64,000 bases of DNA, from contig JAMCYU010000001.1 of NCBI GenBank assembly GCA_023473585.1, forward strand, positions 66,507 through 130,506, given 5' to 3'. The translations under genes were made by a program, and so were the position numbers. The notes beneath the pieces are model-generated. The model saw only the letters and a program-made list of their open reading frames with translations, did not search any database and was not told the origin of the DNA. The number at the start of each line of letters is the position of its first letter. The stretch's first letter is position 1. The stretch is from Patescibacteria group bacterium. Lineage in GTDB: Bacteria > Patescibacteriota > Microgenomatia > JAMCYU01. This document shows positions 6,463-43,171 of this stretch, piece after piece.

Positions 6463-7437
6463 TTATCTTCGGAGCTTTCTGGAGAAAAAACCCTTGATAA
6501 ACAAAAGACCATAGGTAAAATGGGTCACAAAAATTGAAAGGCCAACCAAAATCCCCAGTTTCAAATTTTTTTCCAAAAGGGAAATCTTAAAAGAAGTTAT
6601 CAAAAGAAGCAAGAAATAAAAGGACAAGGTCAGCAAATAAAAAGGCCAAAGCGGTCTTAGGATAAAAGAAACAGGTATCCCCCCAATAAGTCCCAAAGCA
6701 AAAAGGGTCGGCAGAAGATAACCCAAGCGGAAAGAGGTTTTAGGCAATGTTTTGGCAAAGTATCCTCGATGGACGGCATAGCGGCTGATTTGTTCAAGAT
6801 GTGCTCTAAAAACCGCGCGCCGATGATGATAAACTAAAATACGAGGGTCATAAATGATTTTTTTGTTTAATTTATAAACCAAATCATAACATAATTTTGT
6901 GTCCTCCCCCGGCCAGAAATGGGAATCAAAACCGCCGATTTTCACAAAATCTTCTTTGCGAACTAAGAAATTAACCGTCGGATAGTCATTAACTTCACGC
7001 CTTTTACTTACAAGACAACGATATGTCCCTGCTCCACCACTGCCTAACCAACTAGACCAGACATATCCCGAAGCTTTTTGGAATAAATTATCAGAAGGAG
7101 GAGTTACAGTCGGACCGCAAAGCCCCGCTATTCCTTTATTATTTTTGAATAACTCCAGGGCATTTTTTAGCCAGTTTTGGTCCGGATAAGAATCATCGTC
7201 TAAAAAGGCCAAAATCTCACCCTTGGCTCTTTTCGCTCCCAAATCTCGTTTATCGGCCGGTCCGCTTTTTTTTGCGTCTACTAAAATCGTCGTTTTGGGA
7301 AATTTTTCCAAAGACTCTTTATCGACGACAATCAGTAATTCAAAATCTTTTTCTGTTTGAGATAAAATTGCCGGAATTGTCTCTTGACGAAGAAAGTCAT
7401 TAATTTCTTTAACCGGAATAATAATTGAGGCTTTCAT
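6463..7437 (-). CDS. Glycosyltransferase family 2 with C-terminal TM region
   Basis: ASIIIPVKE...LLIVVDKES and AFLDDDSYPD motifs; stop codon back-to-back with stop of 4681-6462 (taatta). Confidence 0.65.
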   Translation of the reverse strand: MKASIIIPVKEINDFLRQETIPAILSQTEKDFELLIVVDKESLEKFPKTTILVDAKKSGPADKRDLGAKRAKGEILAFLDDDSYPDQNWLKNALELFKNNKGIAGLCGPTVTPPSDNLFQKASGYVWSSWLGSGGAGTYRCLVSKRREVNDYPTVNFLVRKEDFVKIGGFDSHFWPGEDTKLCYDLVYKLNKKIIYDPRILVYHHRRAVFRAHLEQISRYAVHRGYFAKTLPKTSFRLGYLLPTLFALGLIGGIPVSFILRPLWPFYLLTLSFYFLLLLITSFKISLLEKNLKLGILVGLSIFVTHFTYGLLFIKGFFSRKLRR

Positions 7438-7450
7438 TTTGAGTAAAGCG

Positions 7451-7486
7451 AAAAAAGTAGCCCTGCCCTAGGCGGGGCGTCTTTTT
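7451..7486 (-). terminator. Rho-independent terminator candidate (GC-rich hairpin GCCCTGCC-cta-GGCGGGGC with U-runs on both strands)
   Basis: Only GC-rich hairpin in an AT-rich 49-nt gap between two minus genes; 7/8 bp stem, 3-nt loop, flanked by A6 (7451-7456) and T5 (7482-7486). Confidence 0.45.
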
Positions 7487-8359
7487 CTAGCCAATATTGA
7501 CCCGATAATCTAAATCTTTATCATAGCGCCATTTGCGCTTATTGGAATTATCGTAATAATGAAGAATTTTAAGCCGATAAAAAACCGCCGCCGTATCCCA
7601 AAGAGTACTAAAAATTGCCCTTAAAATTGACTGGGAAACAATACTTCCTTCCAGATTCCAGACAAGACGAATGGGCGCCTCAAAAATTCTTTTATAACCC
7701 AATCTGTGAGCTACCGCTAAAATCTCAATGTCAAAAGCGTACGTTTTGACGATAAGACGCGGCAAGACATTTTCCAAAACTTCCCTCTTGAAGAATTTTA
7801 TACCTGCTTGAGTATCACGGACATTTAATCCGAAAAGAATTCTCACCATCATTTGATAAACCCGACTGATAATCTTTCTTTGCCAAGGATAATCTATTTG
7901 AGAAGCAGGGTGACGTTTCGAACCAACAATGATGTCTGCGTTGTACCATTCAAAATGTTCCAAAAGCATGGAGAGACCATTAGGATCTAAATCCATGCCT
8001 GCGTCAATAAAAGCTACGATGTCTCCTTTGGTTCTGGCCATACCGAATCTGACAGCGTAACCTTTTCCATGATTAGTCTCGTAGCCAACAACCTTGATTT
8101 TTTTATCTTCGATTTTTTTAGCCCGGCTAAAGGTTTTATCGTCTTTCCCATCGACAACCACAATAATTTCATAATCATATCTGATTTTTTTAAGAACAGC
8201 GTTTATTTTTTTAACGTCTTTAACAATGATTTTTTCTTGGTGATAAGTAGGAATTACGACAGATAAGAAGCGGTGATTAATGTTTTTCATTTCGAAGGTA
8301 ATATAACAGAAGCGTAAATAATAGTAAAGTCGCTTGATGCTTATGTTCTTTTTGACCAC
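7487..8359 (-). CDS. GT2, polyprenyl-phosphate sugar synthase-like (DPM1/GtrB-like)
   Basis: LSVVIPTYHQE...YEIIVVVDGKDDKT...VAFIDAGMDLDP; DPM1-like spacing. Confidence 0.6.
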   Translation of the reverse strand: MVKKNISIKRLYYYLRFCYITFEMKNINHRFLSVVIPTYHQEKIIVKDVKKINAVLKKIRYDYEIIVVVDGKDDKTFSRAKKIEDKKIKVVGYETNHGKGYAVRFGMARTKGDIVAFIDAGMDLDPNGLSMLLEHFEWYNADIIVGSKRHPASQIDYPWQRKIISRVYQMMVRILFGLNVRDTQAGIKFFKREVLENVLPRLIVKTYAFDIEILAVAHRLGYKRIFEAPIRLVWNLEGSIVSQSILRAIFSTLWDTAAVFYRLKILHYYDNSNKRKWRYDKDLDYRVNIG

Positions 8360-9597
8360 GCGTAATACAACGAGAGAAAGGAAAAGAGCAGAGTTGAAGT
8401 TAAAATAAAAATTGAAAGTATTTGCAAGAGTGATTGATGAAAAATAATAATTAAAACAATCTGTAAAATTGCCGCCGTCACGGCCAGTATGGTTGGAAAA
8501 ATAATTTTTAGGGCTAAAAAGATATTGAGGATAACGACGTTAAGAGTGTATAAAGAAATTCCCACAGCAAAATAAATTACATACGGCTCCATGGAAAGAT
8601 AGCTTTTACCGAAAAGCATAAGGATCATTAATTTCGGGAAAAAACCAAAGATAATAAACGATCCTCCGATAATGAGACCGATTAATAAGATGCCGAAAAG
8701 GGCAACTTCTTTAACATTTTTATTCGCCGCCTGAGCTTCAGAGATGGTGGGGAAAATGACACTGACAACCGGAAGGGCGGCAAAATAAATTATTTTTCCC
8801 AGAGTAGAAAGGGCAGCATATAAACCCGCCTCAAGCGGAGGAAGAAAATGGCGTACTAAAATAACATCCGAGGTAATTAACGAAGTGATACTTAAATTGC
8901 TGAAAAAAACCGGAAAGAGAAAAGAAAAGATTTCTTTTTTTTCCGGAATGGGTTCTTTTTTTTCTCCGCCAATCAAATCCTTGACTAGGAAAAAAACAAG
9001 ACCAATAGAAAATAAAGACAGAAGAAAGAAAGGAAAAACCGCTCCGGCTAAACCCCAACCGATATAAAGAAGAAAAATCGTTGCTAATAAGCGAAAAATT
9101 CCTTCGGCAATCCCGGTAACTGTTAGGGCGCCAAAACGACCAAGCCCCTGGAGAAAACTTTTTCCCAAGATCGCAAAAACTCCCAAGATAAAAGATAAGG
9201 CAACCCAAATAAATAAGAAAGGCGAGGGCAAGTGTAAAAAATTGACGACAATTGGGGTAGCCAAGATCATTATTAAAATAACTAGGGGTAATATAAAAAA
9301 TAATTTTTTATTTATTTTCCAAAAAAAAGATTCTATGGTTGTTACCCTATTTTGACCCTTAAACGAAGAAACATATTTAGTAATAACTAAGGAAATCGTA
9401 CTTAAAGGAACGCCCAGTTGATAAATAAGAGAAATTAAACTGTCTAAAATTCCATAATCACTCGGTCCTAAACTGCGGGCGATAACCAAGTGGTATAAAT
9501 AATTAGTCAGGCTCCCGATAAAACCACCAATGACCATGATAAAACTTCCCGAAATAACCTTGTTTTCTTTAATTAAGGAAAAAACTTTTCTGATCAT
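8341..9597 (-). CDS. Wzx/MOP-family oligosaccharide flippase (polysaccharide biosynthesis protein)
   Basis: About 12 TM helices, N-terminal GSFIMVIGGFIGSLTNYLYHLVIARSLGPSDYG typical of Wzx flippases. Confidence 0.5.
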   Translation of the reverse strand: MIRKVFSLIKENKVISGSFIMVIGGFIGSLTNYLYHLVIARSLGPSDYGILDSLISLIYQLGVPLSTISLVITKYVSSFKGQNRVTTIESFFWKINKKLFFILPLVILIMILATPIVVNFLHLPSPFLFIWVALSFILGVFAILGKSFLQGLGRFGALTVTGIAEGIFRLLATIFLLYIGWGLAGAVFPFFLLSLFSIGLVFFLVKDLIGGEKKEPIPEKKEIFSFLFPVFFSNLSITSLITSDVILVRHFLPPLEAGLYAALSTLGKIIYFAALPVVSVIFPTISEAQAANKNVKEVALFGILLIGLIIGGSFIIFGFFPKLMILMLFGKSYLSMEPYVIYFAVGISLYTLNVVILNIFLALKIIFPTILAVTAAILQIVLIIIFHQSLLQILSIFILTSTLLFSFLSLYYAWSKRT

Positions 9598-9610
9598 AAT
9601 TTATCAGCTT

Positions 9611-10705
9611 TTAGGAGACGAAATAACCACGAAAAAAAAACATTGTTATCAATATTAGCAACAAAAGACTTAAAGATAAAGAGATTATTTTTACTTTTCC
9701 TTCTAACCGACCCAAGATAATCATCAGGGGAAAATTAATCAAAAGGTAGCGCGGTAGAGAAGAAAGGGTCCCCGACAGTGTCGGTGTAAGAAGAACTAAC
9801 CAGCCGAATAAAAGATAAGATAGGGAAATTTGCTTATAATATCTTAACAATAAATAAACCGCTAGGATAAAAACCACAAATTCAAAAACGGCAATTAAAT
9901 AATCATAAGATAATTGCGCTGTCGTAAAAATCTTAAGATATCGATATAAGACTTGCGGCAATAAAATAATCTTTTCGCCGCTTCGACCCGCGCCAAACGC
10001 CGGTTGGACATGGAAAAACATTAAGGGGTCAGCGTAAGTTCGCCAAAGATAAAACATATAGAAAAGAAGTCCCATGGGGCTTATTAAAATTGCCAGGAAT
10101 TTAAGAATTGGCTTCTTTTTTTCTTTCCACCATTCATAGAAAAAAACCGGCAGCAAGAATATTCCCACCAATCTGGTAGCACTGGCTAACCCTGCCAGAA
10201 TCCCCGCCAAGAGCCATTTTTTCTTTGCCAGGTTGTAGATACTGCCTATCGTCAAAAAGAAAAATAAACTTTCCGTATAAACGCCGGCAAAGAAAAAAGA
10301 GGTCGGAAAAACCAAAAGAGAAATGATTACCCATTTGGTCACTTTTAAAGAAAACTCTTGCCCTAACAGTTTGTAGAGAATAATAAGACTCCCTAAAAAG
10401 GAAAAATGAGAAATAAGAAGAGCGCTTAAAAGATAATTACTCCCCAAAAGATTACCAAAAAATCTTATTAATAAAGGGTAGAGAGGGAAAAAGGCCTGCT
10501 CGAATTGAAAATAACCGTTTTGAGCAATGGAAAGATAGTGTTGACCATCCATATTCGCCCACCCCCAAAGTAAGGGATTTTGAAGATAATTTTCCGTTCC
10601 CCCCCCTAGAAAACCAAAACGGACAGGAATGACTAACAGACTTAAAGAGGTTATAACAATTAAAAATATTCTCCAGATGAGAAAACTGACGATAACGAAT
10701 TTCAT
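9611..10705 (-). CDS. GT-C membrane glycosyltransferase, PIG-V/GT76-like mannosyltransferase family
   Basis: Multi-TM; WANMDGQHYLSIAQNGYFQFEQAFFPLYPLL matches the conserved WDxxHFLxIAExGYxxExxxAFFP block of PIG-V-type mannosyltransferases. Confidence 0.45.
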   Translation of the reverse strand: MKFVIVSFLIWRIFLIVITSLSLLVIPVRFGFLGGGTENYLQNPLLWGWANMDGQHYLSIAQNGYFQFEQAFFPLYPLLIRFFGNLLGSNYLLSALLISHFSFLGSLIILYKLLGQEFSLKVTKWVIISLLVFPTSFFFAGVYTESLFFFLTIGSIYNLAKKKWLLAGILAGLASATRLVGIFLLPVFFYEWWKEKKKPILKFLAILISPMGLLFYMFYLWRTYADPLMFFHVQPAFGAGRSGEKIILLPQVLYRYLKIFTTAQLSYDYLIAVFEFVVFILAVYLLLRYYKQISLSYLLFGWLVLLTPTLSGTLSSLPRYLLINFPLMIILGRLEGKVKIISLSLSLLLLILITMFFFRGYFVS

Positions 10706-12357
10706 CGTTTATTTTTTAGCTTAATATCTTTATAGATAAAGGTAAGTAAAATCATCAACCCAATCAGGCTTACCAAATTTGACGTTTTTCTGATTAAAGT
10801 TTCGGTAAATTTTGCTTCAAGAGTGAGTTTGTCTTTGGGAATCGGTATCTCCATTACCCCCTCCGAAGACATAACCCTGGTTTGTTCTTTCTGATTGAGC
10901 CAAACCTGCCAGCCGGGGTAGTAAGCGATATTGAGCTTAATTAAGCTCTTTTGATTTGCCTCTCCTTCCAAGAAAAGATAATTTGAGGAAGAAATTTCTT
11001 TTTCAAGATTGATTTCTTTTTTAGAAAATTCAACCCTTTCTCTTTTGACTTTTACATACTCATGATTAAGAGTCTTGGCTCTGTATTCATCGAATTGATT
11101 GGTTGTCTGGAGGTTGTTAATATAAACTTCATCATGATTGTAGACATACTGATTAACGCGCAAATGGTTTTTATTGGTATAGAAAGCCAGAGAGATAAAA
11201 AAAATTACCACCAGCCAGACACGCTCTTTTAAGTGCTTGGCCACCAGGGCCGCGCCCAAACTGCCGCTAAAAACAGCCAAACTTAAAAATCTCCAGGGAA
11301 AATCAAAGTAACTGTATTTCGTAATTTGTTCCCAGGCCGGTTTGGAAACTGAAATCATCATGATTATGGAAAAAACAAAACAACCGACAGCAAAAAAACC
11401 CAACCAGTCGATTTTTTTCTGACGGAACCAGGTTATTAAGCTTAGAATCGCCAAAAGAATCATGGCCAGCCATTGAGCAATGCCTACCTGAAACGACATC
11501 TCGTCATTGACCGTTCCCGGAAAGTCAAAACCATAACCCCATTTTGAATAGATTAATTGCTTTAAGGTGACGAAGTGATCCAAAAAATGAGACTGTAATA
11601 TTTGTGTGGCAACCGTAAACTGTTTTTCAAAAATAGCGGGGATCAGATAATACGAAGAAAGGATTATCCCTAAAAACGACCCGGCAATTATTCCCCCAAT
11701 AAAGAGTTTGTTATTTTTGGCCTCTTTCCCTTGAAGTAAAACCCAAAAGAAGAGAGGCAAAGCAAAAATAATAAGAACCATTAAGTGAGAGAGAATTACT
11801 CCGGCTAGTCCCAAACTTACTAAAATTATTCCCTTCGTTGTTTCTCGTTTTTCCCTGACTTTCCATATCCCCCAAAACACTAAGGGTATAAATATAAAAG
11901 CTGTTGCTTCTCCCAACGAAGCTCTGACAAAAATATTGGAAAACCGGTAAGGCGCCCAAAGATAAAGGACCGAACCTAATAATCCCGGAAAAAGCCCCAG
12001 CATTTCTTTGAGCCATAAATACATGAAAATTCCAGATAATAAATAACCAATAATAAAAACTCCTTTTATGGCGTCGGTCAGTGACAATCCTACTTTCAGA
12101 AGAGGAATCCCGATAAACCATGGGGATTGATAAGAAAAAATGAAGAGCGGATAACCATAACCATTATCAGCCGTCCCGGCCCAACGAGGAGGAACCTGGC
12201 CGTCCTTTAAGGCCTGATTAAAATGATAAAGCCTGATAACCTGATGCTCGCCATCATGACTGGTATAAAAACCACTGTGAAATAAAGCTTTCACCCCGAA
12301 AAAACCAATTAAAATAACTAAAAGAAGAAAAACGTTTTTTTTTAAAATATTCATCAT
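10702..12357 (-). CDS. Polytopic membrane protein, putative GT-C glycosyltransferase (HSGF/HDGEH/PPRW/GYGYP family, copy 1 of 3)
   Basis: N-terminal FHSGFYTSHDGEHQVIRL...DGQVPPRWAGTADNGYGYPLFIFSYQSP conserved with CDS 31295-32998 and 32991-34556; 12 or more TM helices plus C-terminal soluble domain. Confidence 0.4.
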   Translation of the reverse strand: MMNILKKNVFLLLVILIGFFGVKALFHSGFYTSHDGEHQVIRLYHFNQALKDGQVPPRWAGTADNGYGYPLFIFSYQSPWFIGIPLLKVGLSLTDAIKGVFIIGYLLSGIFMYLWLKEMLGLFPGLLGSVLYLWAPYRFSNIFVRASLGEATAFIFIPLVFWGIWKVREKRETTKGIILVSLGLAGVILSHLMVLIIFALPLFFWVLLQGKEAKNNKLFIGGIIAGSFLGIILSSYYLIPAIFEKQFTVATQILQSHFLDHFVTLKQLIYSKWGYGFDFPGTVNDEMSFQVGIAQWLAMILLAILSLITWFRQKKIDWLGFFAVGCFVFSIIMMISVSKPAWEQITKYSYFDFPWRFLSLAVFSGSLGAALVAKHLKERVWLVVIFFISLAFYTNKNHLRVNQYVYNHDEVYINNLQTTNQFDEYRAKTLNHEYVKVKRERVEFSKKEINLEKEISSSNYLFLEGEANQKSLIKLNIAYYPGWQVWLNQKEQTRVMSSEGVMEIPIPKDKLTLEAKFTETLIRKTSNLVSLIGLMILLTFIYKDIKLKNKR

Positions 12358-12375: not shown

Positions 12376-13116
12376 TTACTGACTGAAAATTTTATCTTTG
12401 CTAAAACCCCATTTATTAAGAGTGAAGCGCAAAAGAACGAAAAGTGTTTGCAGTAAAAACTTTGTCCCTTTGATAAATCTGATTGAGGAGCTTTCAGAAA
12501 AATAGCGGACAGGAACGGGAATTTCTCCGACTTTAAACCCCAGGGCAATCGCCGAAGCCATCATTTCCTGGTCAAAAACAAAATCATTGGAAAAACGCTG
12601 GTACGGCACTGTTTCTAGAACTTTTCTACTGTAAGCTCTAAAACCGCTGAAATGCTCGGAGAAATTGACGCCAAGAATAATGTTTTCGATAACGCAAAAA
12701 AACCTGTTAAGAAAATATTTGGTTAACGGCATGCCTCCCCGGAGAGTTTCTTCCCGCGTGCGAATACGAGACCCGAACATTAAGTCGTATTCACCTTGTA
12801 AAATTGGTTCAATAAGAGCTTTGGTTTTAGTTCCATCATACTGATAGTCGGGGTGAAGCATAACGATAACATCGGGATTTTTCTTTAAAGCCTCTCGATA
12901 ACAGGTTTTCTGATTTCCCCCGTAACCTAGATTTTGCGAATGGACAAAAACTTTAAGCCCTAATTTTTGAGCAATAGCTACGGTTCTATCCACGCTTTTA
13001 TCGTCAACAACGATAACCTCGCTGATTATCTCTTTCGGTAAATCCCGGTATGTCTTTTCTATGGTCTTTTCGGCATTAAACGCCGGCATGACAATAATGA
13101 CTTTAGATTTTCTCAT
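12376..13116 (-). CDS. Glycosyltransferase family 2
   Basis: VIIVMPAFNAEKTIEKT...VIVVDDKSVDRT GT2 N-terminal signature. Confidence 0.65.
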   Translation of the reverse strand: MRKSKVIIVMPAFNAEKTIEKTYRDLPKEIISEVIVVDDKSVDRTVAIAQKLGLKVFVHSQNLGYGGNQKTCYREALKKNPDVIVMLHPDYQYDGTKTKALIEPILQGEYDLMFGSRIRTREETLRGGMPLTKYFLNRFFCVIENIILGVNFSEHFSGFRAYSRKVLETVPYQRFSNDFVFDQEMMASAIALGFKVGEIPVPVRYFSESSSIRFIKGTKFLLQTLFVLLRFTLNKWGFSKDKIFSQ

Positions 13117-14167
13117 AGATTTTTTTATAAATTCGCATCGTTTCTTTTGTTGTTTTTTCCCAACTGAATTTGCTTGCCTGGATTAACCCCTTTTCCACCA
13201 AAAGATTTCTTTCTTTAGTATCTTTTACCACTTTTTCTATTGCTTTGGCAAGATTTTCTCTGTCATAGGGATCAACCAAAATGGCCGCCTCACCGCAAAT
13301 CTCCGGTAGGCTGGATGTTTTGGAGGCAACTACCGGTGTCCCACAGGCCATGGCTTCCAAAACCGGTAAACCAAAACCTTCGTAAATTGAAGGCATGACA
13401 AAAACAGTCGCCAAATTATACAAAACCACTAAATCTTCTGTTGGCACAAAACCTAATCTTAAAATCCGAGTGTTGTTTTTGGCCAAGGTTTGGACTTTAA
13501 CTAAATCCTGATTCCAGACGTTATCTTTATCATAATTATCCGCCGTCAGGGCCTTACCCACCAAAACCAACGGAAAGTCTAGCGTCTTAACCGCCTCGAG
13601 CAATCGCGGTAAGTTTTTGTTCCAGGTTACGTCACCCACATAAAGGACAAATTCTTTTGGTAATTTGTATTTTTCTCTAATCCTGTCTAGTAAAAGGGTG
13701 TCTTTAATTTGTCTAAATTCAGCCGCCGGAGCAAGATAAACCACATGAACCTTTTCTTTGGGAAAACCAGTCAAACGAACGATGTCTTGTTTTGAGTTTT
13801 CCGAATCGGTAATAATCGCTTCGGCTTTCTTTAATAAACATTTCTGAACTCCCCATTTTAATCTGCCTCTTATCCCCGAAGGAAAATACTGGGGAAAAAC
13901 CAAGGGAGTCAGATCATGAACCGTGACGACGGTTTTTTTTCCTTTAAAAATCGGTAGGCTTAAAAAAAATGGCTCAAAATAAGGATAATGAATTAAATCA
14001 ACGTCTTGAGGTAATTTTTCTTTGCGAGTAAAAAAAAGATATTGATTTTGCGGAAAGTATGTTTCTAATGACTTTTTCAGGTTTTCTATATAAAAACCAG
14101 TCCCTCTGACCCTATGCCATAAAACTCTTTCTTCTTTGAGAGGCGTAATATCAATGGCAATTTTCAT
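13103..14167 (-). CDS. Glycosyltransferase family 4 (GT-B, retaining)
   Basis: C-terminal EGFGLPVLEAMACGTPVVASKTSSLPEICG motif (EX7E GT4 signature). Confidence 0.7.
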   Translation of the reverse strand: MKIAIDITPLKEERVLWHRVRGTGFYIENLKKSLETYFPQNQYLFFTRKEKLPQDVDLIHYPYFEPFFLSLPIFKGKKTVVTVHDLTPLVFPQYFPSGIRGRLKWGVQKCLLKKAEAIITDSENSKQDIVRLTGFPKEKVHVVYLAPAAEFRQIKDTLLLDRIREKYKLPKEFVLYVGDVTWNKNLPRLLEAVKTLDFPLVLVGKALTADNYDKDNVWNQDLVKVQTLAKNNTRILRLGFVPTEDLVVLYNLATVFVMPSIYEGFGLPVLEAMACGTPVVASKTSSLPEICGEAAILVDPYDRENLAKAIEKVVKDTKERNLLVEKGLIQASKFSWEKTTKETMRIYKKIYEKI

Positions 14168-27577: not shown

Positions 27578-28216
27578 TTATTCGTAAATAATTCTAATCC
27601 GGGCATTATCAAGAAAAACTTCGTAGCCTAAACTGGAATAAAGCTGAACTCGGTAAAGTCTATTTCCTAAAGCAAAAGAAATCTTTTCTGACCTTACCAT
27701 ATTTCCGGCTTGACCCTCTACCCAAACCTCGCTGTTCCAAACAGGATGATCGTCGTTAACGTTATAAAGTCTGGCGTAAGCTCTCCCGTTAGCGGTCGGA
27801 ATACGCAAAGCTGCCTCAAAGTTTGCTTCTTTGATCTTGGTATATTTAGAAGTGTCAATATATGTTTCTATTCCGCCGATGTTTACCCAAGAAGTGTTTT
27901 TTGTCGAACCGCTGCCTAGGGGAATAAAAATTTCTTTTGTGGCCACAGCCTTATTTTGAGCTTCTTTTTCCGCCGTTGGCAATTTAATTGAGGCCGTGGC
28001 CGTTTCAATCGCTTGCAAACAAGCCGGTGAACAATTCATTATTTCTTCGTTTATTATGGCTGAGGGGGTCGGGGTAACCGGGGACTCCGTCACCGTTTCT
28101 GTTTTTTCTTCTGGCTCTTTGGTTAAAAACAACTTTATGTCAAGAATAATAAGATTAAAGGCCAGTAAAAAAAGAAGAAGGAATATCCCCATGGTTATAA
28201 TTTTAGTTTTATTCAT
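27578..28216 (-). CDS. Membrane-anchored secreted protein with Pro/Thr linker, function unknown
   Basis: N-terminal TM (IITMGIFLLLFLLAFNLIIL), PEEKTETVTESPVTPTPS linker, soluble C-terminal domain. Confidence 0.3.
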   Translation of the reverse strand: MNKTKIITMGIFLLLFLLAFNLIILDIKLFLTKEPEEKTETVTESPVTPTPSAIINEEIMNCSPACLQAIETATASIKLPTAEKEAQNKAVATKEIFIPLGSGSTKNTSWVNIGGIETYIDTSKYTKIKEANFEAALRIPTANGRAYARLYNVNDDHPVWNSEVWVEGQAGNMVRSEKISFALGNRLYRVQLYSSLGYEVFLDNARIRIIYE

Positions 28217-36921: not shown

Positions 36922-36924
36922 TTT

Positions 36925-38415
36925 TTAGGGCTTAATTTGATAGACGTAGTTGTATCTATCCGTTGTCCCTTTTTTTGTTTTTAAAATAAGTTCAGCCAGC
37001 CAACCCGGTGGTGGTTGATTCTGAAAGAAAATAATATAGGTAGGTTCTGTTTTTGCTTTTTCCATAACCTCCGCCGTCGGTTTGTCCGGTATGGGCCAAA
37101 TTCCCTTAATAAAGACATTGGTATCGTCAACCAGGTATAATTCTATGGCCGCCGGCAATAAACCAAAAGTCCCTTCGGTAAACACCGCAATTTTCTCTTG
37201 CCTGGCTTTCTCCTTAAAAAGGTCAACGCTCTCTTTTATCCCCCAACCCGATGGCCAGTCGTTAAAATACTGATGAGAGTCCGAGCGGGGAATTGGTGCT
37301 TCCGTGGGATTAACGAAAAGTTCATAATCCGTCTTTAAAGGAACAATAAACAAAATAACCAGCAAAAAAATGGTCACTATTTTTTTCTTAAGAAGAGTCC
37401 CTAAATTAAAAAGGGTCTTGGCGCTTAATAAGAAAAGCGGTAGCGTCATAAAAAATATAAAGCGAGGATAGATAACTTTGCCAAATAAGGCTAAACCGAC
37501 AAACGGCACCATAAACCAAGAAAAAAGAAGCAGTTTTTCCCTGAAGAATTTCATCGCCAGAAAACTTAGAAAAACAGTCACAACCAATGGCCAACTTAGA
37601 TAACCAATTATCCAACTCCAAAGGCCCGCCAAATTTCCATAGAAAAAAGTAAACGGATGATTCAACCATTCGGATAATGGGTAAATAAAGGTTGTGTCTT
37701 TTTGAGAAACCATGTGAAAAAACGGGGAAAGACGTAAGACCGAATAGATCATCTGGGAAACAAAACAACTTATTAAAACAAGACATAACCACTTACTTAA
37801 TCTTTTAAGTCTCTCTTTGCAACTGAAATCAAAAAGCAATAAGGAAAAAGGTAAGAGATAGAGAGAGATGAAGCCCGAGGTCTTCGTTAGCATGGTAAAG
37901 CCCATCAGGCCACCCAAAAGGAGGGCGATATCTAAACGCAGGTTTTTCATAAGAAGAATCTCCAGAATTAAGGCCCAAAGCATCAACATGGCCAATAATC
38001 CATCCATGAGCGCCATTCGATCGTAAACCATCGCAAACGGAGAAATCAGGTATAAAAAGCCGGCAATTATCCCAACCTGCCATTTTTGAAAAATGAGTTT
38101 TCCGCCAAAGATTAAACCTAAAATAGACCCCGCTCCGGCCAAAACCGAAATAAATCTGCCGGCCGTGATCGGATCGGAAATTACCCTCATGGCCATCATG
38201 GTTAACCAAATAAAAAGAGGTTGCTTGCCGTCAGTTAGAGAAATAAAACGCCAGTTGGCATCATTCTTGGCAATTTGCGCCCAGCGAAGATAAATCGCCT
38301 CATCAGTAAAGATCGGGAAATTATTCAGTGACAAAAATCGCGAGAAAAAATAAGCTACAAAAATAACAAAAACGGCAAAAATCTCAATTTTCCTAAGATC
38401 CTTAAAAATGGCCAT
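36925..38415 (-). CDS. ArnT/PMT-like GT-C glycosyltransferase (GT83/GT39-like)
   Basis: FPIFTDEAIYLRWAQ (DE loop motif), multi-TM, FISVLAGAGSILGLIFGGKLIF; ArnT-like layout. Confidence 0.5.
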   Translation of the reverse strand: MAIFKDLRKIEIFAVFVIFVAYFFSRFLSLNNFPIFTDEAIYLRWAQIAKNDANWRFISLTDGKQPLFIWLTMMAMRVISDPITAGRFISVLAGAGSILGLIFGGKLIFQKWQVGIIAGFLYLISPFAMVYDRMALMDGLLAMLMLWALILEILLMKNLRLDIALLLGGLMGFTMLTKTSGFISLYLLPFSLLLFDFSCKERLKRLSKWLCLVLISCFVSQMIYSVLRLSPFFHMVSQKDTTFIYPLSEWLNHPFTFFYGNLAGLWSWIIGYLSWPLVVTVFLSFLAMKFFREKLLLFSWFMVPFVGLALFGKVIYPRFIFFMTLPLFLLSAKTLFNLGTLLKKKIVTIFLLVILFIVPLKTDYELFVNPTEAPIPRSDSHQYFNDWPSGWGIKESVDLFKEKARQEKIAVFTEGTFGLLPAAIELYLVDDTNVFIKGIWPIPDKPTAEVMEKAKTEPTYIIFFQNQPPPGWLAELILKTKKGTTDRYNYVYQIKP

Positions 38416-38424
38416 AATCTTTTT

Positions 38425-39516
38425 TTATTTTGTTTTAACTATTATATTACTAAACTTTTCTTTAACCAAATAAGTCAGGAATAAATAAAGGAAGGGCATT
38501 ATTAAAAGAAAATATCTGGGCCAAACGGGAATAAAAAATAAAAACACAAAATAAATCACTAACCAAATGACGATTAGAGAAAGGCTATCGCGCTTCCTTT
38601 TTAAAAGATGAGAGACCAAATACCAGCTGCCGGCGATAAATAAAATCGGCCAGGTAATTTGCCACTCAGAAATATTGACAACGCCATCCCACCAAGTAGG
38701 CCATCGATTTAAAATCATCATGGGAAAGACCATTCCCATTTCCCCTTTAGCCCCCACCGTATAAAAATTCAAAATCCATTTTTGAACTCCCAGAAATTCA
38801 CGAAAGCTATGGCCTAAGAAAAAATAACGGCCATAGGTTAACAAAAAAACGATTATGGCCAAAGGTAAACTTCGAAGAAAATTAATTAGATTCTTCCTTT
38901 TGCTCACAAAAAGATACAGGCCGCAGGTAGCTCCGACTAAAAGACCTGTGGAAACCGTATTTTTTGTTCCGGCCATTAACCCAAAACAAACGGCAAAGAG
39001 AAAAAATTTTTCCTTAAGAAGAAAATAAAAAGTCAGAATAAGAAACATTAAATAAAGCGTATCCAAGTAAGGAGCCCGAAGCTGTTTGTAAAAAAGCGGC
39101 TCGAAAGAAAAAAAAGTTACGGGCAAAAGACTCCAAAATTTATCTTTTAAAAAAAAGAGGTTCAGTTTGTAAAAGCAAAATAAGACTAAGATGCCGGTTA
39201 AAAGCGCAAAAATGTTTTGGTTTTGGAAAATAATAATGGACAAACCGATAAGATATTTCCCAAGCGGCGGCATTTCGGCATTTAAAATACTGGGGTCTTC
39301 TCCGTTAACATAAGCCCAGCCCGCATAAGCGTAAAGACCATCGTCACCGATCGATTCCTTTGACTGCGGATCAACCCATTGTGATTTTAGATAGCGATTT
39401 TGCCAATAAACCGGATCAAATTTCGTTAAGTATTCCTGCCGATATTCAAAAATCCGGAAAAAGAAATTAAAGATAAGAATAAAAAGCAAAATAAAAAGGC
39501 CCAGTTTCTGTTTCAT
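38425..39516 (-). CDS. Polytopic membrane protein; paralog of window-edge fragment 8-535
   Basis: Shares GVQKWI and EWQITWPILFI motifs with CDS 8-535. Confidence 0.35.
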   Translation of the reverse strand: MKQKLGLFILLFILIFNFFFRIFEYRQEYLTKFDPVYWQNRYLKSQWVDPQSKESIGDDGLYAYAGWAYVNGEDPSILNAEMPPLGKYLIGLSIIIFQNQNIFALLTGILVLFCFYKLNLFFLKDKFWSLLPVTFFSFEPLFYKQLRAPYLDTLYLMFLILTFYFLLKEKFFLFAVCFGLMAGTKNTVSTGLLVGATCGLYLFVSKRKNLINFLRSLPLAIIVFLLTYGRYFFLGHSFREFLGVQKWILNFYTVGAKGEMGMVFPMMILNRWPTWWDGVVNISEWQITWPILFIAGSWYLVSHLLKRKRDSLSLIVIWLVIYFVFLFFIPVWPRYFLLIMPFLYLFLTYLVKEKFSNIIVKTK

Positions 39517-40694
39517 GATTTTCTTTTTGAAAATTTAAGAGAATAAAATCCGGTGATGATCCAGATTAATAAAGAAATCCCTAACGGGATAAGAGTTAAC
39601 CAAAGAGTTAAGTCAGACACGGGCGGTTGATAATGGCCAAAATAAAGAAAGGGCGCATAGCGCAAAAGTAAACCCAAAGTTAAACCCATCGTCATCATCG
39701 TTACGAACCTGCTTTCGGCAATCAGGCTGGCCATGCCGATAACGGTTATAAAATACCAGGGATACGATTCTCTTTGCACGATAACCGGTATTAAAGAAAC
39801 GAGAAAACCAAAAAGTAGCATTTTGATAAACAAAAACCAATTCACGTTTTTCCTCAGTAAGGCGAGAAAATAAAAAGGGAGAAAACTTACGGAGATAAAT
39901 TTAATGCCAAAAGAAAGAAAAAGAAAGAAAAAAGAACTTATTTTTTTTCTTAAAATTAATAAATAAAAGGACACCAGGGCAAAAAACAACATTAAAATAT
40001 CATTATGACTGCTCACTAACGATTCAATGATAATCAGCGGATTAAAGGCAAAAAAAACAAGGGAAAAAAGTTTATCCTGGGGTTTTATCTTTTCCATGAT
40101 TTTGCTTATAAAGAAAGCGCTGCCCAAATAGCCAAGAGTCATTAAGAGTTTAAAATTAAAAAGAGTTAAGGTAAATTTACCCAGACCCAAAAACGAGGGA
40201 ATTAAAGAAAGTCCCAGGAAAACCGGTCCGTGATTATAGGTCGTATGGGTCCAACGCATAAAACGAATCCAAGAATCATCGGGAAAATCAAGCGGTCTAA
40301 ATTGATACGGAGAAAGTCCGTAATGAGTAAAAATTCTTGCCCAAAAAAGATAATTGAAAAGGTCATAAGAAAAGGCAGCGTAGGCAAAAAGTAAAATTCC
40401 GGAGAGGAAAATAAGCAAAAACCATATTTTTCTTTCCGTAAATTTATTTTTCCTAACTAAAGATAAAAAGAGGAAATAAAAAAGAATCAACAATAAAATG
40501 ATGATCAAAAAAATGACTGCGGAAAGCGGACGCTGAAAATACCCAATTTTTATAAAGATGTTTTGTAAGTCACGTGTTATCGGAAAATTGGGAAGAGTCA
40601 GATTAAGGTCTACTTGAGTAAACGAATAAAAAAACAAAGCAAAAATAAGAATTAAGTAGCTTATGGCCAGTATGAAATAGCTTTTATTATTCAT
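39513..40694 (-). CDS. Polytopic membrane protein, function unknown
   Basis: 393 aa hydrophobic ORF, operon context. Confidence 0.35.
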   Translation of the reverse strand: MNNKSYFILAISYLILIFALFFYSFTQVDLNLTLPNFPITRDLQNIFIKIGYFQRPLSAVIFLIIILLLILFYFLFLSLVRKNKFTERKIWFLLIFLSGILLFAYAAFSYDLFNYLFWARIFTHYGLSPYQFRPLDFPDDSWIRFMRWTHTTYNHGPVFLGLSLIPSFLGLGKFTLTLFNFKLLMTLGYLGSAFFISKIMEKIKPQDKLFSLVFFAFNPLIIIESLVSSHNDILMLFFALVSFYLLILRKKISSFFFLFLSFGIKFISVSFLPFYFLALLRKNVNWFLFIKMLLFGFLVSLIPVIVQRESYPWYFITVIGMASLIAESRFVTMMTMGLTLGLLLRYAPFLYFGHYQPPVSDLTLWLTLIPLGISLLIWIITGFYSLKFSKRKS

Positions 40695-41442
40695 ACAATC
40701 CCTGGAGACTCTTCAGGCGAATTTTAAGCAAGTCACAAAAAGCCTGCCACGAATCCTTCAGGGGACTGACTCTTCTTGTCTCGACATAATGCCATTCAAC
40801 CGGAACTTCTTTGATTTTAAAACCTAATTTCTTGGCGACAAACAGGATCTCGATATCAAAACCCGCCGTCACCATTGAACCGGAGACCAGTTTTTTTTGA
40901 CCATAGAGTTTAAGACGATTAAAGATTTTCTTGGCGACTTCATTTTTAAAGATCTTAAAACCACATTGTGTATCGGTTATGCCCGACAAACCAAGAATAA
41001 GGGTTCTTAAAAACATAAATCCCCTGGCCATAATGATTCTTGAAAGGGGCGCCCCTTCTCTTTCCGTATTTCTTGAACCGATAACAACATCATAGTCTTT
41101 TTGAATCAGGGGAAGAAGTTTTTCCAACTCATTAATTGGCGTAGCCTGATCTAAATCGCAAAAGAGAACGTATTGTCCGTTGGCCCCAACCATGCCCGTA
41201 ATAACGGTCGCCGCTTTCCCCTGATGCTTATTTTTAATCAAAGAAAAACCAAGATGGCTTTTCCTAAATTCTTCAATTAAACTTCTGCTTTCATCTTCCG
41301 ACCCATCATCAACAATGATGACTTCCCATGAATACGGCTGTTTTTGTAAATAATCAGAAACTTTTCCCAAGGCGCCAAGTCTGATATTTTTTTCTTCGTT
41401 ATAACAAGGGATAACGACTGATAAAAAGATTTCCTTGTCCAT
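40687..41442 (-). CDS. GT2, polyprenyl-phosphate sugar synthase-like (DPM1/GtrB-like)
   Basis: FLSVVIPCYNEEKNI...EVIIVDDGSEDES...FCDLDQATP. Confidence 0.6.
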   Translation of the reverse strand: MDKEIFLSVVIPCYNEEKNIRLGALGKVSDYLQKQPYSWEVIIVDDGSEDESRSLIEEFRKSHLGFSLIKNKHQGKAATVITGMVGANGQYVLFCDLDQATPINELEKLLPLIQKDYDVVIGSRNTEREGAPLSRIIMARGFMFLRTLILGLSGITDTQCGFKIFKNEVAKKIFNRLKLYGQKKLVSGSMVTAGFDIEILFVAKKLGFKIKEVPVEWHYVETRRVSPLKDSWQAFCDLLKIRLKSLQGLYE

Positions 41443-41450
41443 ATCTTTTT

Positions 41451-42242
41451 TTAATTAAGTTTAACTAACCTTCCATGCTCGCGAGCATTTTCAAACATCC
41501 AATTAAAAAATAATAATGACAGAACCAAATAAATGATGTTCAAACCAAAGCTTATCATTAAGTTGCCAGTATTTATTGACCCTGTCATAATCACTCTTCG
41601 CATTTCTTCAAAAATATAGGTTGAGGGAAGCATCTGCCCGATTTTTTGAGCCCAAGTGGGGATCGAAGAAAGAGGATAATAGATACAAGAAAAGGGAGAC
41701 ACCCAAGCTAACAAAGCCCACGCCAACTCTTGAGCTCCAAAACCAAAACGAACAATTAAGCCATTGATGATAACGCCGAAGGATAAACCGAAGATTAAAA
41801 GATTGATAATCAAAAAAGGAAGATAGAGACCATAAAGACCAAAGATATTAAATTTATAAAAAATAAATGCTCCCAAGAGCATAACCAGCATTGTCAATGT
41901 TAGTTTAATTAAGCCCAAGATTACGCTGGCTAACAAAAATTCAGCCGTGGTCAGCGGTGTCGAAAAGATATTAATTAAGTTTTGATTCCAGGCCTCATCT
42001 AGGAAATTAACCGACATTTCTCTTTGGGAAATTGAGGTGAATTCCCAAAAAATAACTCCTCCTAAAAGAAAAGCGATAATTGAAAAACCAAAGGAGGCAT
42101 TTTTCTCAAAAAAAGACATCGTCATTCCCCAACTGATCAGTCCTAAAAGCGGCCAGCCCAAAGATCCCTGCCACCTCTCCAGGCTTCTGGGCCAAATATA
42201 AAGATGACGGATAACAACGGCCACGATTCTTTTTAAGCTCAT
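41451..42242 (-). CDS. ABC-2 type transporter permease (Wzm/TagG-like)
   Basis: 263 aa, 6 TM, N-terminal RHLYIWPRSLERW typical of ABC-2 permeases; 4-nt overlap with ATPase gene. Confidence 0.55.
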   Translation of the reverse strand: MSLKRIVAVVIRHLYIWPRSLERWQGSLGWPLLGLISWGMTMSFFEKNASFGFSIIAFLLGGVIFWEFTSISQREMSVNFLDEAWNQNLINIFSTPLTTAEFLLASVILGLIKLTLTMLVMLLGAFIFYKFNIFGLYGLYLPFLIINLLIFGLSFGVIINGLIVRFGFGAQELAWALLAWVSPFSCIYYPLSSIPTWAQKIGQMLPSTYIFEEMRRVIMTGSINTGNLMISFGLNIIYLVLSLLFFNWMFENAREHGRLVKLN

Positions 42243-43171
42243 GTCATTTTCTCCCGAGTGACTTTTAGAAAAAAATCCTCTAATGTTGGTTTTTCGATCG
42301 TAATTTGCGAATATTTAAGCTTCGCTAATGACAATCTTCCCAGGAGCTGGCCTATTTTTTCCTCTTCGATCTCAATAATCGTTTCGTTTCCCTCTAATAA
42401 ATATTGATAACCGTAATTATCAAGCAATAAATTAACTTTTTCTTGTGTGACTAAAAAAAGCAATCGCACTTTACAGGTTTTTATTTTCTGCGACAAACCA
42501 ACGGGGGTATCTTCAGCAACGATTTTACCTTTATGTAAGAAAATTACCCGATCACAGATTTCCGTTATTTCCGCCATATTGTGTGAGGTAAAAAGAACGG
42601 TCGTTTTATCTTCTCTGACTTTCTTCAAAATAAATTTTCTGGTTAAATCGGCCACATCGGGATCTAAAAAAGCCGTCGGTTCGTCCAGAAGAAGAAGCTT
42701 AGGGTTATTAATAAAGGCTTTACACAAATAAAGACTGGTTAACTGACCGGACGACAAATCATTGGTTGTTTTATTCTTCAAATGAAAAATTTTAAATTCC
42801 TGTAAAAGTTGATCTGTTTTTGCCTTATAGTCGCTTACCTGATAAAGCCTGGCAAAAGTGTATAAATTCTCACAAACCTTAAGCCGCCAGGGAAGATTAA
42901 CGTAAGCGGCAGAAAAATTCATGTTTCCTAAAATTTCGACTCTATTTTTCTCAAGCGGCAGATTAAAGATCTTAATCTCTCCGCTGGTTGGCTTGGTTAA
43001 ACCAAGCAGCATGTCTATCGTCGTGGTTTTTCCGGCACCATTTGGGCCCAACAATCCCAAGATCTCCCCTTCTCTCATCTCAAAAGAAATATTGTTAACA
43101 GCCACAAATCCGTCGGTTGGCGAACCGAATCTTTTTATCAGGTTTTTAACTTCTAAAACGGGCTTTTCCAC
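42239..43171 (-). CDS. ABC transporter ATP-binding protein (Wzt/TagH-like) with C-terminal extension; GTG start
   Basis: Walker A GPNGAGKTT, signature LSSGQ, Walker B LLLLDEPT, H-loop TSHNM. Confidence 0.75.
   Translation of the reverse strand: MEKPVLEVKNLIKRFGSPTDGFVAVNNISFEMREGEILGLLGPNGAGKTTTIDMLLGLTKPTSGEIKIFNLPLEKNRVEILGNMNFSAAYVNLPWRLKVCENLYTFARLYQVSDYKAKTDQLLQEFKIFHLKNKTTNDLSSGQLTSLYLCKAFINNPKLLLLDEPTAFLDPDVADLTRKFILKKVREDKTTVLFTSHNMAEITEICDRVIFLHKGKIVAEDTPVGLSQKIKTCKVRLLFLVTQEKVNLLLDNYGYQYLLEGNETIIEIEEEKIGQLLGRLSLAKLKYSQITIEKPTLEDFFLKVTREKMT

Follow-up and report, generated by a model that had tools for sequence, protein, structure and literature searches.

A conserved 37-kb gene array dense in predicted GT-C glycosyltransferases in a Microgenomates bacterium

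We analysed a 64,000-nucleotide stretch of DNA from a Patescibacteria group bacterium (assembly GCA_023473585.1, contig JAMCYU010000001.1, positions 66,507 to 130,506; hereafter the window, numbered from its first letter), which harbors a large array of glycosylation genes. The list of open reading frames (ORFs) revealed 30 minus-strand ORFs in an unbroken series from 6463 to 43171, covering ~37 kb. We numbered them g01 (6463-7437) to g30 (42239-43171) by rising coordinate; transcription would proceed from g30 to g01. The Pfam scan covered ORFs of at least 100 amino acids (aa), apart from short ones lying inside longer ORFs and the giant ORF at 55976-62932. The genes are listed below from g30 to g01, with glycosyltransferases (GTs) given by family (GT2, GT4) or, for the polytopic membrane enzymes, as GT-C, and with transmembrane abbreviated to TM.

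g30, 42239-43171, minus strand: ABC transporter ATPase, first gene of the array (Pfam ABC_tran, 4e-29; top NCBIfam match the DrrA subfamily, below cut-off)
g29, 41451-42242, minus strand: ABC-2 permease, overlapping g30 by 4 nt (Pfam ABC2_membrane, 26.4 bits against a cut-off of 26.9)
g28, 40687-41442, minus strand: soluble GT2, polyprenyl-phosphate-sugar synthase-like (Pfam GT2)
g27, 39513-40694, minus strand: MptA/MptB-like GT-C, 393 aa, ~10 TM helices (PF26314 on an identical protein; YDLFNY motif)
g26, 38425-39516, minus strand: small divergent PMT_2-type GT-C, 363 aa (Pfam matches of homologs; D58; PPLGKY motif)
g25, 36925-38415, minus strand: PMT_2 GT-C (Pfam PMT_2, 36.2 bits against a cut-off of 26.1; FTDEA after TM1)
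g24, 34525-36921, minus strand: YfhO-family GT-C, 798 aa (Pfam YfhO, 2e-36)
g23, 32991-34556, minus strand: PTPS_related (PF10131) GT-C, paralog of g05 and g22 (Pfam, 4e-14)
g22, 31295-32998, minus strand: PTPS_related/PMT_2 GT-C (Pfam; HDDE motif; (ATGTTTT)x4 repeat at 32020-32051)
g21, 30589-31311, minus strand: soluble GT2, polyprenyl-phosphate-sugar synthase-like, between GT-C g22 and Wzx g20
g20, 29113-30564, minus strand: Wzx/MOP flippase (Pfam Polysacc_synt_3, 1e-45; NCBIfam MOP flippase, Oglyco_Wzx and TuaB, below cut-off)
g19, 28220-29134, minus strand: GT2, 37-39% identical to g08 and g15 (Pfam GT2, 6.5e-28)
g18, 27578-28216, minus strand: 212-aa protein with an N-terminal TM helix, a Pro/Thr-rich linker and a small C-terminal domain (no family match)
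g17, 26624-27553, minus strand: GT2 (Pfam GT2, 2.8e-23)
g16, 24703-26655, minus strand: GT-C of a Microgenomates family without a Pfam match, 650 aa (oligosaccharyltransferase (OST)-like fold without the WWDxG motif)
g15, 23948-24706, minus strand: GT2 of the g08 family (Pfam GT2, 9e-18)
g14, 22912-24030, minus strand: GT4 (Pfam Glycos_transf_1, 1e-19, and Glyco_transf_4)
g13, 20634-22931, minus strand: YfhO-family GT-C, 765 aa, 34% identical to g24 (Pfam YfhO, 2e-30)
g12, 19717-20637, minus strand: GT2 (Pfam GT2, 9e-24; partial PDB matches)
g11, 18186-19754, minus strand: GT-C of a second Pfam-less family, found in the candidate phyla radiation (CPR), 522 aa (AlphaFold2 model and Foldseek; FVDEDE)
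g10, 16552-18189, minus strand: PMT_2/PMT GT-C, 39% identical to g09 (Pfam, above cut-off; SWDEV motif)
g09, 14955-16562, minus strand: PMT_2/PMT GT-C (Pfam PMT_2, 1e-15, and PMT, 1e-11; DWDEA motif)
g08, 14164-14943, minus strand: GT2 (Pfam GT2, 3e-20; weak PDB matches to GmaR and SunS)
g07, 13103-14167, minus strand: GT4 (Pfam Glycos_transf_1, 3e-34)
g06, 12376-13116, minus strand: soluble GT2, polyprenyl-phosphate-sugar synthase-like (only PDB match the dolichol-phosphate-mannose synthase (DPMS) 5mlz)
g05, 10702-12357, minus strand: PTPS_related/YfhO-like GT-C (Pfam PTPS_related, 1.6e-11, and YfhO, 9e-10; HDGE motif)
g04, 9611-10705, minus strand: PIG-V-like (Mannosyl_trans2) GT-C (partial Pfam match; NMDGQHY..IAQNGY motif)
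g03, 8341-9597, minus strand: Wzx/Polysacc_synt flippase (Pfam Polysacc_synt, 1.7e-14)
g02, 7487-8359, minus strand: GT2, polyprenyl-phosphate-sugar synthase-like, adjoining Wzx g03
g01, 6463-7437, minus strand: GT2 with C-terminal hydrophobic helices, last gene, 3' of a hairpin (Pfam GT2; hydrophobic peaks at residues 238-296)

The first-pass annotation of this DNA had described about thirty tightly spaced genes on one strand, and the count is exactly 30: of the 29 junctions, 20 overlap, eight have gaps of 3-24 nt and one, between g02 and g01, spans 49 nt. Glycosylation-related genes make up 29 of the 30, a functional clustering far beyond chance. The large polytopic membrane proteins, put at ten or more at first pass, comprise 13 of GT-C type, belonging to at least seven sequence families. 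Ten GT2 enzymes were assigned by Pfam within the array (g01, g02, g06, g08, g12, g15, g17, g19, g21 and g28), fewer than the dozen or so first counted, and two more lie just beyond it (525-1355 and g32). The two GT4 enzymes (g07 and g14), the two Wzx/Polysacc_synt flippases (g03 and g20) and the single ABC-2 exporter (ATPase g30 and permease g29) agree with the earlier count; the ortholog of the borderline permease g29 in a relative's locus (L004) matches PF01061. The small protein g18 was found only in the closest relative and has no match in Pfam, including a permissive scan (E<=5), or in NCBIfam.

Nine of the polytopic proteins (g04, g05, g09, g10, g13, g22, g23, g24 and g25) score above the Pfam gathering thresholds, which bears out the PMT/ArnT-like, YfhO-like and PIG-V-like members recognized at first pass. 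The PIG-V-like match is partial, as g04 aligns with PIG-V/GT76 (PF04188) at 30.7 bits (cut-off 22.4) over profile positions 29-202 of 443 only. Both g13 and g24 belong to the YfhO family (PF09586), with 106 and 126 bits, respectively, against a cut-off of 28.5, and across 122 homologs Asp66 is conserved in 100% and Asp36 in 94% (g24 numbering). The trio g05, g22 and g23, earlier taken for an uncharacterized family, is indeed one family with 30-32% mutual identity, but a catalogued one, namely PTPS_related (PF10131); g23 aligns with the YfhO protein g13 at an hhalign probability of 95%. The PMT/PMT_2 members g09, g10, g25 and the neighboring g31 all exceed the gathering score and carry the motifs DWDEA, SWDEV, FTDEA and LGDEG, respectively, after TM1. 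None of these four matches the MIR domain, indicating the bacterial PMT_2/ArnT layout, unlike that of eukaryotic PMT (protein O-mannosyltransferase).

The other four GT-C proteins are g11, g16, g26 and g27. A protein identical to g27 on an independent Logan contig carries PF26314 (MptA_B_family), whereas the match of g27 to the MptA equivalog TIGR03459 (2e-14, 53 bits) lies far under the cut-off of 439 and places g27 outside that equivalog; EpsG is matched weakly (E 0.08). Although g26 itself has no Pfam match, it has 694 representative homologs, and among 44 that were aligned 18 match PMT_2 and 10 match PMT; together with the invariant Asp58 and the PPLGKY motif, this identifies g26 as a small, divergent PMT_2-type GT-C. 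Five of the 44 aligned proteins are fused to penicillin-binding-protein domains (PBP_dimer, MecA_N), which hints that this small family may act beside peptidoglycan synthesis. Sequence searches of the PDB gave no match for g04, g27 or g29, and shallow hhalign comparisons (1-5 orthologs) did not link g04, g11, g16, g26 or g27 to other GT-C families.

No Pfam or NCBIfam match was found for g11, and none of its 60 homologs carries a Pfam domain; all those with a named source are from the CPR. Similarly, none of 67 g16 homologs carries a GT-C-type Pfam domain, and nearly all source-named ones are from Microgenomates, one being labelled Nevskiaceae. Permissive Pfam scans (E<=5) of g11, g16, g26, g27 and the N-terminus of a TPR protein adjoining the array returned noise only. 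The AlphaFold2 models of g11 (pLDDT 91.5) and g16 (pLDDT 93.8, pTM 0.94) both display a polytopic N-terminal domain of GT-C fold. Structural similarity search using Foldseek revealed that the top 15 matches of g11 and the top 16 of g16 are all GT-C enzymes, the latter comprising STT3, DPY19, PglB, AftA, ArnT, Pmt4 and AftD, at a similarity that is superfamily-level only (TM-score ~0.44, identity ~10%).

In addition, the C-terminal domain of g16 resembles the globular domain of AglB. Compared to STT3, PglB and AglB, g16 has three extra N-terminal helices, both g16 and g11 lack the WWDxG motif, and the identity is only ~10-12%; Pfam and NCBIfam detect no sequence-level relationship. A pattern scan of g16, g11 and the other GT-C proteins found WWDxG in none of them, a bare WWD at residue 275 of g26 being the nearest instance, and the assignment of g16 to the oligosaccharyltransferase family was rejected because the motif is absent. 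Some g16-family members reach ~1100 residues and contain PF12979, a domain of solved structure and unassigned function, as an extra extracytoplasmic domain.

An acidic motif shortly after TM1 can be read in all 13 GT-C proteins. In the families of g11 (Asp43, n=48), g16 (Asp142, n=38) and g26 (Asp58, n=44), an acidic residue of the first extracytoplasmic loop is invariant, where the outward placement of this loop depends entirely on applying the positive-inside rule to the models. The adjoining DPMS/GtrB-like GT2 enzymes and flippases suggest that the GT-C enzymes may use a polyprenyl-(pyro)phosphate-linked donor.

The GT2 enzymes fall into three groups: g02, g06, g21 and g28 together with g32; g08, g15 and g19; and g01, g12 and g17. 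The top PDB matches of g21 are the Pyrococcus furiosus DPMS (PDB 5mlz, 8e-19), ArnC and GtrB, and those of g02 are the same DPMS (1e-14), GtrB and ArnC. For g28, chondroitin synthase comes first, over residues 7-124 only, followed by DPMS (residues 6-173), ArnC and GtrB. The NCBIfam matches, all below cut-off, are AglJ (6e-21) and PpgS (1e-17) for g06, PgfS and Dol-P-hexose transferase for g21, PgfS and ArnC for g02, and for g28 the glycosyltransferase PRK10073, then PgfS, ArnC, AglJ and PpgS. By this homology g02, g06, g21 and g28 are candidate polyprenyl-phosphate-sugar synthases, and the other two groups look like ordinary chain-building GT-A enzymes.

The synthase-like enzymes lie in recognizable sets with flippases and GT-C enzymes. 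One set consists of the adjacent g22 (GT-C), g21 (GT2) and g20 (Wzx), and another of the adjacent g06 (GT2), g05 and g04 (GT-C), g03 (Wzx) and g02 (GT2). Just upstream of the array, g32 (GT2 fused to a GtrA domain) and g31 (PMT_2) make a two-gene version of the same scheme. A synthase-type GT-A, a flippase and a GT-C enzyme are thus found together, the synthase part being assigned by homology below the curated cut-offs. Such sets fit the first-pass proposal that glycans are built on lipid carriers and transferred outside the membrane.

The best named homologs come from Candidatus Gottesmanbacteria, with more distant ones in Levybacteria, Roizmanbacteria and Daviesbacteria; a protein annotated 'Patescibacteria group bacterium' matches g11 at 100% identity across the 98% that aligns (512 aa against 522). 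Judged from these sequences, the source is a Gottesmanbacteria-like CPR (Microgenomates) bacterium. Its genome is metagenome-assembled, and an assembler might in principle have joined separate loci through the paralog pairs g09/g10, g22/g23 and g13/g24. However, these paralogs are only 30-39% identical, too diverged for mis-joins. Moreover, window 32023-44516 (12,494 nt, g31 to g22) is reproduced at 100% identity by a Logan contig from SRR10267473, and contig JBFOMW010000009.1 of GCA_040960625.1 runs colinear with window 9948-36653 (~27 kb) at 89% nucleotide identity. Synteny is still seen in relatives at ~54% amino-acid identity. That the large membrane proteins might be transporters or other non-glycosyltransferases is countered by the same HMM searches, which placed them in GT-C families, nine above Pfam thresholds, and by the leading 15-22 fold matches of g11 and g16, all GT-C, with transporters appearing only at non-significant scores. 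On these grounds misassembly and the transporter assignment, either of which we consider highly improbable, were both rejected.

Two further loci, on a second contig of GCA_040960625.1 (JBFOMW010000021.1) and in GCA_043801155.1, keep the same order at ~54% amino-acid identity. The latter has three extra YfhO genes and reaches ~16-17 GT-C genes in ~43 kb; the closest relative (89% identity) carries a third tandem PMT_2. A core order of PTPS_related, GT2, Wzx, GT2, GT2, GT2, GT4, YfhO, GT2 and then two to three PMT_2 genes, as in locus L009 (locus L008 has an extra YfhO before GT4), is also found in a Levybacteria contig and in a metagenome-assembled genome (MAG) labelled Saccharimonadales, at ~33-36% YfhO identity. 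Among relatives, g16 and g18 are variably present.

Scanning genome contigs with the single protein g24 gave no loci, whereas a g11 alignment run against GTDB species representatives retrieved 31, from Gottesmanbacteria, Curtissbacteria, Woesebacteria, Beckwithbacteria and other Patescibacteria. Those long enough to judge mostly hold 3-9 GT-C genes within +/-10 kb, as counted by classifying their ORFs against the window proteins. Such GT-C-rich neighborhoods surround g11 homologs in ~25 further species, with a recurrent pattern in Woesebacteria. Altogether, the GT-C-rich array is a trait of the lineage whose periphery varies, and the window stands near the upper end of its density.

Three observations were made alongside these comparisons. 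GCA_040960625.1 contains contigs of 602 kb and 788 kb with separate versions of the locus, at ~54% and ~90% amino-acid identity to the window, and seems to hold two different Gottesmanbacteria genomes. Some g11 homologs sit in MAG records titled 'uncultured Gammaproteobacteria' or 'Pseudomonadales', several of which (L025 and L031) share gene order with Woesebacteria MAGs (L026 and L030); these titles are probably wrong. Finally, g22 contains a perfect heptanucleotide repeat at 32020-32051, (AAAACAT)x4.6 or, on the coding strand, four copies of ATGTTTT, which encodes part of a TM helix. The 89%-identical relative lacks this repeat, and the independent Logan contig stops exactly within it. As the unit is seven nucleotides long, a change in copy number would shift the reading frame, making the repeat a possible phase-variation site.

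The first-pass annotation had regarded the array as one mega-operon. Its contiguity and co-orientation hold, but a single transcript does not follow from them. About 47 of the 53 ORFs in the entire window lie on the minus strand, the GC skew is monotonic, the genome is compact, and junctions beyond the array are equally tight, so spacing and strand are weak evidence for one transcript. The candidate control elements are:

7460-7478, both strands: G+C-rich hairpin in the g02/g01 spacer with a T-run on each strand, candidate terminator or attenuator
43179-43207, minus strand: sigma-70-like promoter match TTGCAA-17-TACAAT just 5' of the g30 start, a consensus match only

The hairpin corresponds to the internal terminator suspected at about 7451-7486. 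Its minus-strand sequence is GCCCCGCC-tag-GGCAGGGC, in which one C.A pair is mismatched; tacTTTTTT comes next. Promoter and terminator consensus matches are not enriched over shuffled sequence and therefore say little, and Rfam and tRNA scans of the window gave no matches. A Trp_repressor-family gene at 43369-43815 on the plus strand, divergent between g30 and g31, may be a local regulator; a second family member lies inside the array of GCA_040960625.1 (locus L002, 16420-16851).

The array could alternatively comprise several independent glycosylation modules with different acceptors and several transcripts, brought side by side by a compact, strand-biased genome together with local recombination and duplication. 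The tight junctions outside the array, the strand shared by ~47 of 53 window ORFs and the hairpin with its T-run before g01 are compatible with such a history, and so are several features of the relatives: the g21 and g20 orthologs of GCA_040960625.1 separated by a Trp_repressor-like gene and another on the opposite strand, two inverted GT-C genes and triplicated YfhO in GCA_043801155.1, the third tandem PMT_2 of the closest relative, and the coming and going of g16 and g18. The regulator and opposite-strand genes within relatives' arrays also weigh against one obligate operon and make it unlikely. On the other side, the block order is kept from Gottesmanbacteria to Levybacteria at ~33% identity, suggesting functional linkage; more than two thirds of the junctions overlap; and terminator-like sites inside the array are no commoner than in shuffles. 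We regard separate modules as a genuine possibility, though not the expected one. Transcription of the array is probably largely joint, from upstream of g30, and need not yield one obligate transcript.

Glycosylation-related genes continue on both sides of the array. The flanking features are as follows:

43995-46631, minus strand: g31 (PMT_2 GT-C, LGDEG motif) and g32 (GT2 fused to a GtrA flippase-type TM domain), by Pfam
46628-52553, minus strand: two short-chain dehydrogenase/reductase (SDR) dehydratase/epimerases, UDP-glucose 6-dehydrogenase, RmlD, RmlB and RmlA, by Pfam; nucleotide-sugar supply
4681-6462, plus strand: polytopic protein (~10 TM helices) with C-terminal TPR (TPR Pfam matches), convergent with g01, the stop codons abutting

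The g31/g32 pair is kept beside the array in the relative loci L002 and L004. In the nucleotide-sugar segment, RmlB scores above its NCBIfam cut-off, and RmlA, RmlD and the TuaD-like protein score below. The genes rmlA, rmlB and rmlD occupy 49834-52553, but rmlC was not seen anywhere in the window. At its N-terminus the RmlD ORF carries 70 additional residues that overlap rmlB, probably an over-long start call.

Further upstream lie genes for a CAP-domain protein, a subtilase, a 2318-aa surface protein and a sortase. The 2318-aa protein (ORF 55976-62932) has an N-terminal TM or signal segment, a Pro/Thr-rich linker at residues ~65-190 and a C-terminal TM helix with an RRSS tail. An LPVAG sequence precedes this helix by ~50 residues, and the sortase gene is directly upstream (region 55976-63527). 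The protein is a candidate glycosylated surface fiber.

On the other side, the polytopic TPR protein shows the FLSDDIAAISHN motif after its first TM helix (FLSDD). Its N-terminal 440 residues have no Pfam match and reach an hhalign probability of only 75% against the g26 family; it is possibly a further GT-C enzyme, presumably resembling the TMTC-type enzymes that join GT-C and TPR parts. Past this protein the genes encode a B12-radical SAM enzyme, a PseB/CapD-like dehydratase, an epimerase and a GT2, and a truncated g26-like ORF follows. The radical SAM enzyme (3099-4598, B12-binding and HpnJ/BchE-like, below cut-off) adjoins the UDP-sugar 4,6-dehydratase (2240-3097), and the two could form a sugar-modifying pair, for example a C-methylase. 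The ORF at 8-535 on the plus strand, which the window start truncates, shares 29% identity with the C-terminal portion of g26, pointing to another small PMT_2-type GT-C and to an island that reaches past the window. The functional island is therefore wider than the array, extending roughly from position 1 to 52.5 kb.

The organization recalls three known kinds of system. The scheme of a GT-A enzyme, a Wzx or GtrA flippase and a GT-C enzyme has been reviewed for CsbB/GtcA/YfhO, GtlA/GtlB and GacI/J/K/L of Gram-positive bacteria (PMC8035078), and the array resembles these three-component systems in combining candidate polyprenyl-phosphate-sugar GT-A enzymes, GtrA or Wzx flippases and GT-C enzymes that would act outside, with YfhO members on both sides. 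Two GT2, Wzx and GT-C sets plus one GT2-GtrA and PMT_2 set can be discerned here. Firmicutes possess one to a few such systems, scattered over the genome, and Streptococcus pyogenes is said to encode two uncharacterized GT-C enzymes (10.1101/2024.05.05.592596), whereas the array gathers 13 from at least seven families in 37 kb, with four to five candidate donor synthases. Its synthase-like GT2 enzymes lack the C-terminal TM helices of GtrB and CsbB, and no teichoic-acid genes were seen in the window.

In mycobacteria and corynebacteria, synthesis of lipomannan (LM) and lipoarabinomannan (LAM) switches from GT-A/B to GT-C enzymes for elongation and branching outside the membrane (PMC2157549). 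The pathways for LM, LAM and arabinogalactan (PimE, MptA/B/C, Emb, AftA-D, Ppm1 and an ABC exporter) share with the scheme predicted for the array a cytoplasmic GT-A/B phase followed by many GT-C enzymes using polyprenyl-phosphate monosaccharides. They also share MptA/B-like and PIG-V/PimE-like members, a DPMS-like synthase without TM helices (like Ppm1) and an ABC-2 exporter. The resemblance does not extend to orthology, as the low TIGR03459 score of g27 illustrates, nor to the Emb and Aft sequence families, and the phylum and the genome size (~1 Mb) differ. Furthermore, mycobacterial GT-C genes are dispersed, whereas those of the array lie in one locus.

The rhamnose-rich wall polysaccharide loci cwps, gac/scc and epa of lactococci, streptococci and enterococci (PMC9574508, PMC10821137) are likewise large and co-oriented, with extracytoplasmic GT-C steps and strain-variable content, and they share rmlA, rmlB, rmlD and the combination of an ABC-2 exporter with Wzx. 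Side-chain addition to Gram-positive wall polysaccharides uses an outside GT-C step (PMC8035078). Yet these loci contain ~1-3 GT-C-fold proteins compared to 13 in the array, and rmlC, a GacO/TagO-type initiator, an LCP ligase and a recognizable rhamnosyltransferase were not found in the window.

Reading roles across from these known families onto what is directly observed, namely family and fold membership, conserved loop aspartates, gene adjacency and conservation, we propose that the array may represent several multi-component transmembrane glycosylation systems set head to tail. Nucleotide sugars would come partly from the upstream rml and UDP-glucose dehydrogenase genes, as their homology suggests. 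The DPMS/GtrB/ArnC-like g02, g06, g21 and g28, together with g32, are predicted to load single sugars onto polyprenyl phosphate, while the other six GT2 and the two GT4 enzymes would build a lipid-linked oligo- or polysaccharide on the cytoplasmic face. The two Wzx flippases and the ABC-2 exporter would carry lipid-linked glycans outward, where the 13 GT-C enzymes may polymerize, branch, decorate or attach the glycan from lipid-linked sugars. This logic would be that of mycobacterial lipomannan and arabinogalactan or of Gram-positive rhamnose-rich wall polysaccharides.

Any statement on what the acceptor is, be it protein or glycopolymer, or on how many distinct glycans are made is pure inference. 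On balance, we favor a lineage-conserved envelope-glycan assembly line whose main acceptor is probably a wall- or membrane-anchored glycopolymer. This preference rests on the ABC-2 exporter, the eight GT-A/GT-B enzymes outside the synthase type, the MptA/B-like and PIG-V-like members, the rml genes upstream and the fusion of some g26 homologs to PBP domains.

Several observations weigh against such an assembly line. The GT2 and Wzx matches to named NCBIfam families all fall below the curated cut-offs. The ABC pair g30/g29 is closest to DrrA/DrrB exporters, again below cut-off, rather than to Wzm/Wzt or TagGH specifically, and the permease has no PDB relative. Among the scanned window ORFs, Pfam gave no match to Bac_transf, Glycos_transf_4, Wzy_C, O-antigen polymerase or Wzz, and an initiating phosphoglycosyl transferase, Wzy, a chain-length regulator and an LCP ligase did not turn up there either. 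Proteins can serve as acceptors for YfhO and PMT families (10.1101/2024.05.05.592596), and g11 and g16 find their closest fold matches in enzymes that glycosylate proteins. A locus of the Wzy-dependent O-antigen or capsule type was rejected, the scanned ORFs having yielded no initiating transferase, no polymerase and no chain-length regulator. For a glycopolymer of any other kind, the lack of a recognizable initiator and ligase places its start and attachment elsewhere in the genome or with unrecognized proteins.

An alternative is that the array serves mainly protein O-glycosylation, with GT-C enzymes transferring sugars from polyprenyl phosphate to Ser/Thr in Pro/Thr-rich linkers and building oligosaccharides stepwise on targets such as the neighboring giant sortase-associated protein, pili or S-layer proteins. 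In line with this, g09 and g10 match the PMT model besides PMT_2, the models of g11 and g16 best match STT3, PglB, AglB, DPY19 and Pmt4, g16 has its AglB-like C-terminal domain, and GT2 enzymes match PgfS and AglJ, below cut-off. In streptococci, disordered regions rich in Ser/Thr are glycosylated by PgtC2, an enzyme of the YfhO family (10.1101/2024.05.05.592596). Three of the four secreted or anchored non-glycosylation proteins of the window (the giant protein, the CAP-domain protein and g18) have Pro/Thr/Ser-rich linkers, but such linkers are common in surface proteins, glycosylated or not. Without WWDxG none of the members is a canonical oligosaccharyltransferase, the fold matches stay at superfamily level, and the ABC-2 exporter, the MptA/B-like and PIG-V-like members and the eight ordinary GT-A/GT-B enzymes suit polymer or lipoglycan assembly better. 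We consider protein O-glycosylation unlikely to be the main function. The glycopolymer and protein-glycosylation readings are compatible rather than exclusive, and some members of the proposed assembly line may O-glycosylate Pro/Thr-rich linkers of surface proteins.

Limited full-text literature searches of incomplete coverage found no description of a GT-C-rich locus in CPR, Patescibacteria or Microgenomates, and an older paper on Peregrinibacteria notes only multiple copies of 'dolichol-phosphate mannosyltransferase'. All component classes of the array are known; what is new is the concentration of 13 GT-C enzymes among 30 genes (14-15 with the flanks), the conservation across a CPR class and the two GT-C families without Pfam or NCBIfam models.

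A bolder and quite tentative extension, which we hold with low confidence, is that Microgenomates may build a major, undescribed envelope heteroglycan or lipoglycan almost wholly on the external face of the membrane through a class-wide assembly line of a dozen or more GT-C enzymes, at least two of whose families would be CPR-only and one OST-like. The mycobacterial arabinogalactan/LAM pathway would then have an independent counterpart in miniature genomes. Variation in copy number, possibly including slipped-strand change at the g22 repeat, would diversify the surface for contact with hosts and phages.

CPR genomes are ~1 Mb in size, and these bacteria are generally regarded as missing many biosynthetic pathways and as living in attachment to, or dependence on, other cells; to our knowledge, their surface chemistry is essentially undescribed. 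Thirteen to fifteen GT-C enzymes in one place are comparable to the number in the whole Mycobacterium tuberculosis genome. The present analysis adds two confidently modelled, Pfam-less GT-C families (g11 and g16), of which g16 combines an OST-like layout with the absence of the OST motif. Conservation of the locus across Gottesmanbacteria, Levybacteria, Woesebacteria and Beckwithbacteria provides a defined gene set for glycomics, heterologous expression and structure determination. With ~37-46 kb given over to glycosylation and 13-15 extracytoplasmic GT-C enzymes encoded there, a complex surface glycan seems to be among the central investments of this lineage.

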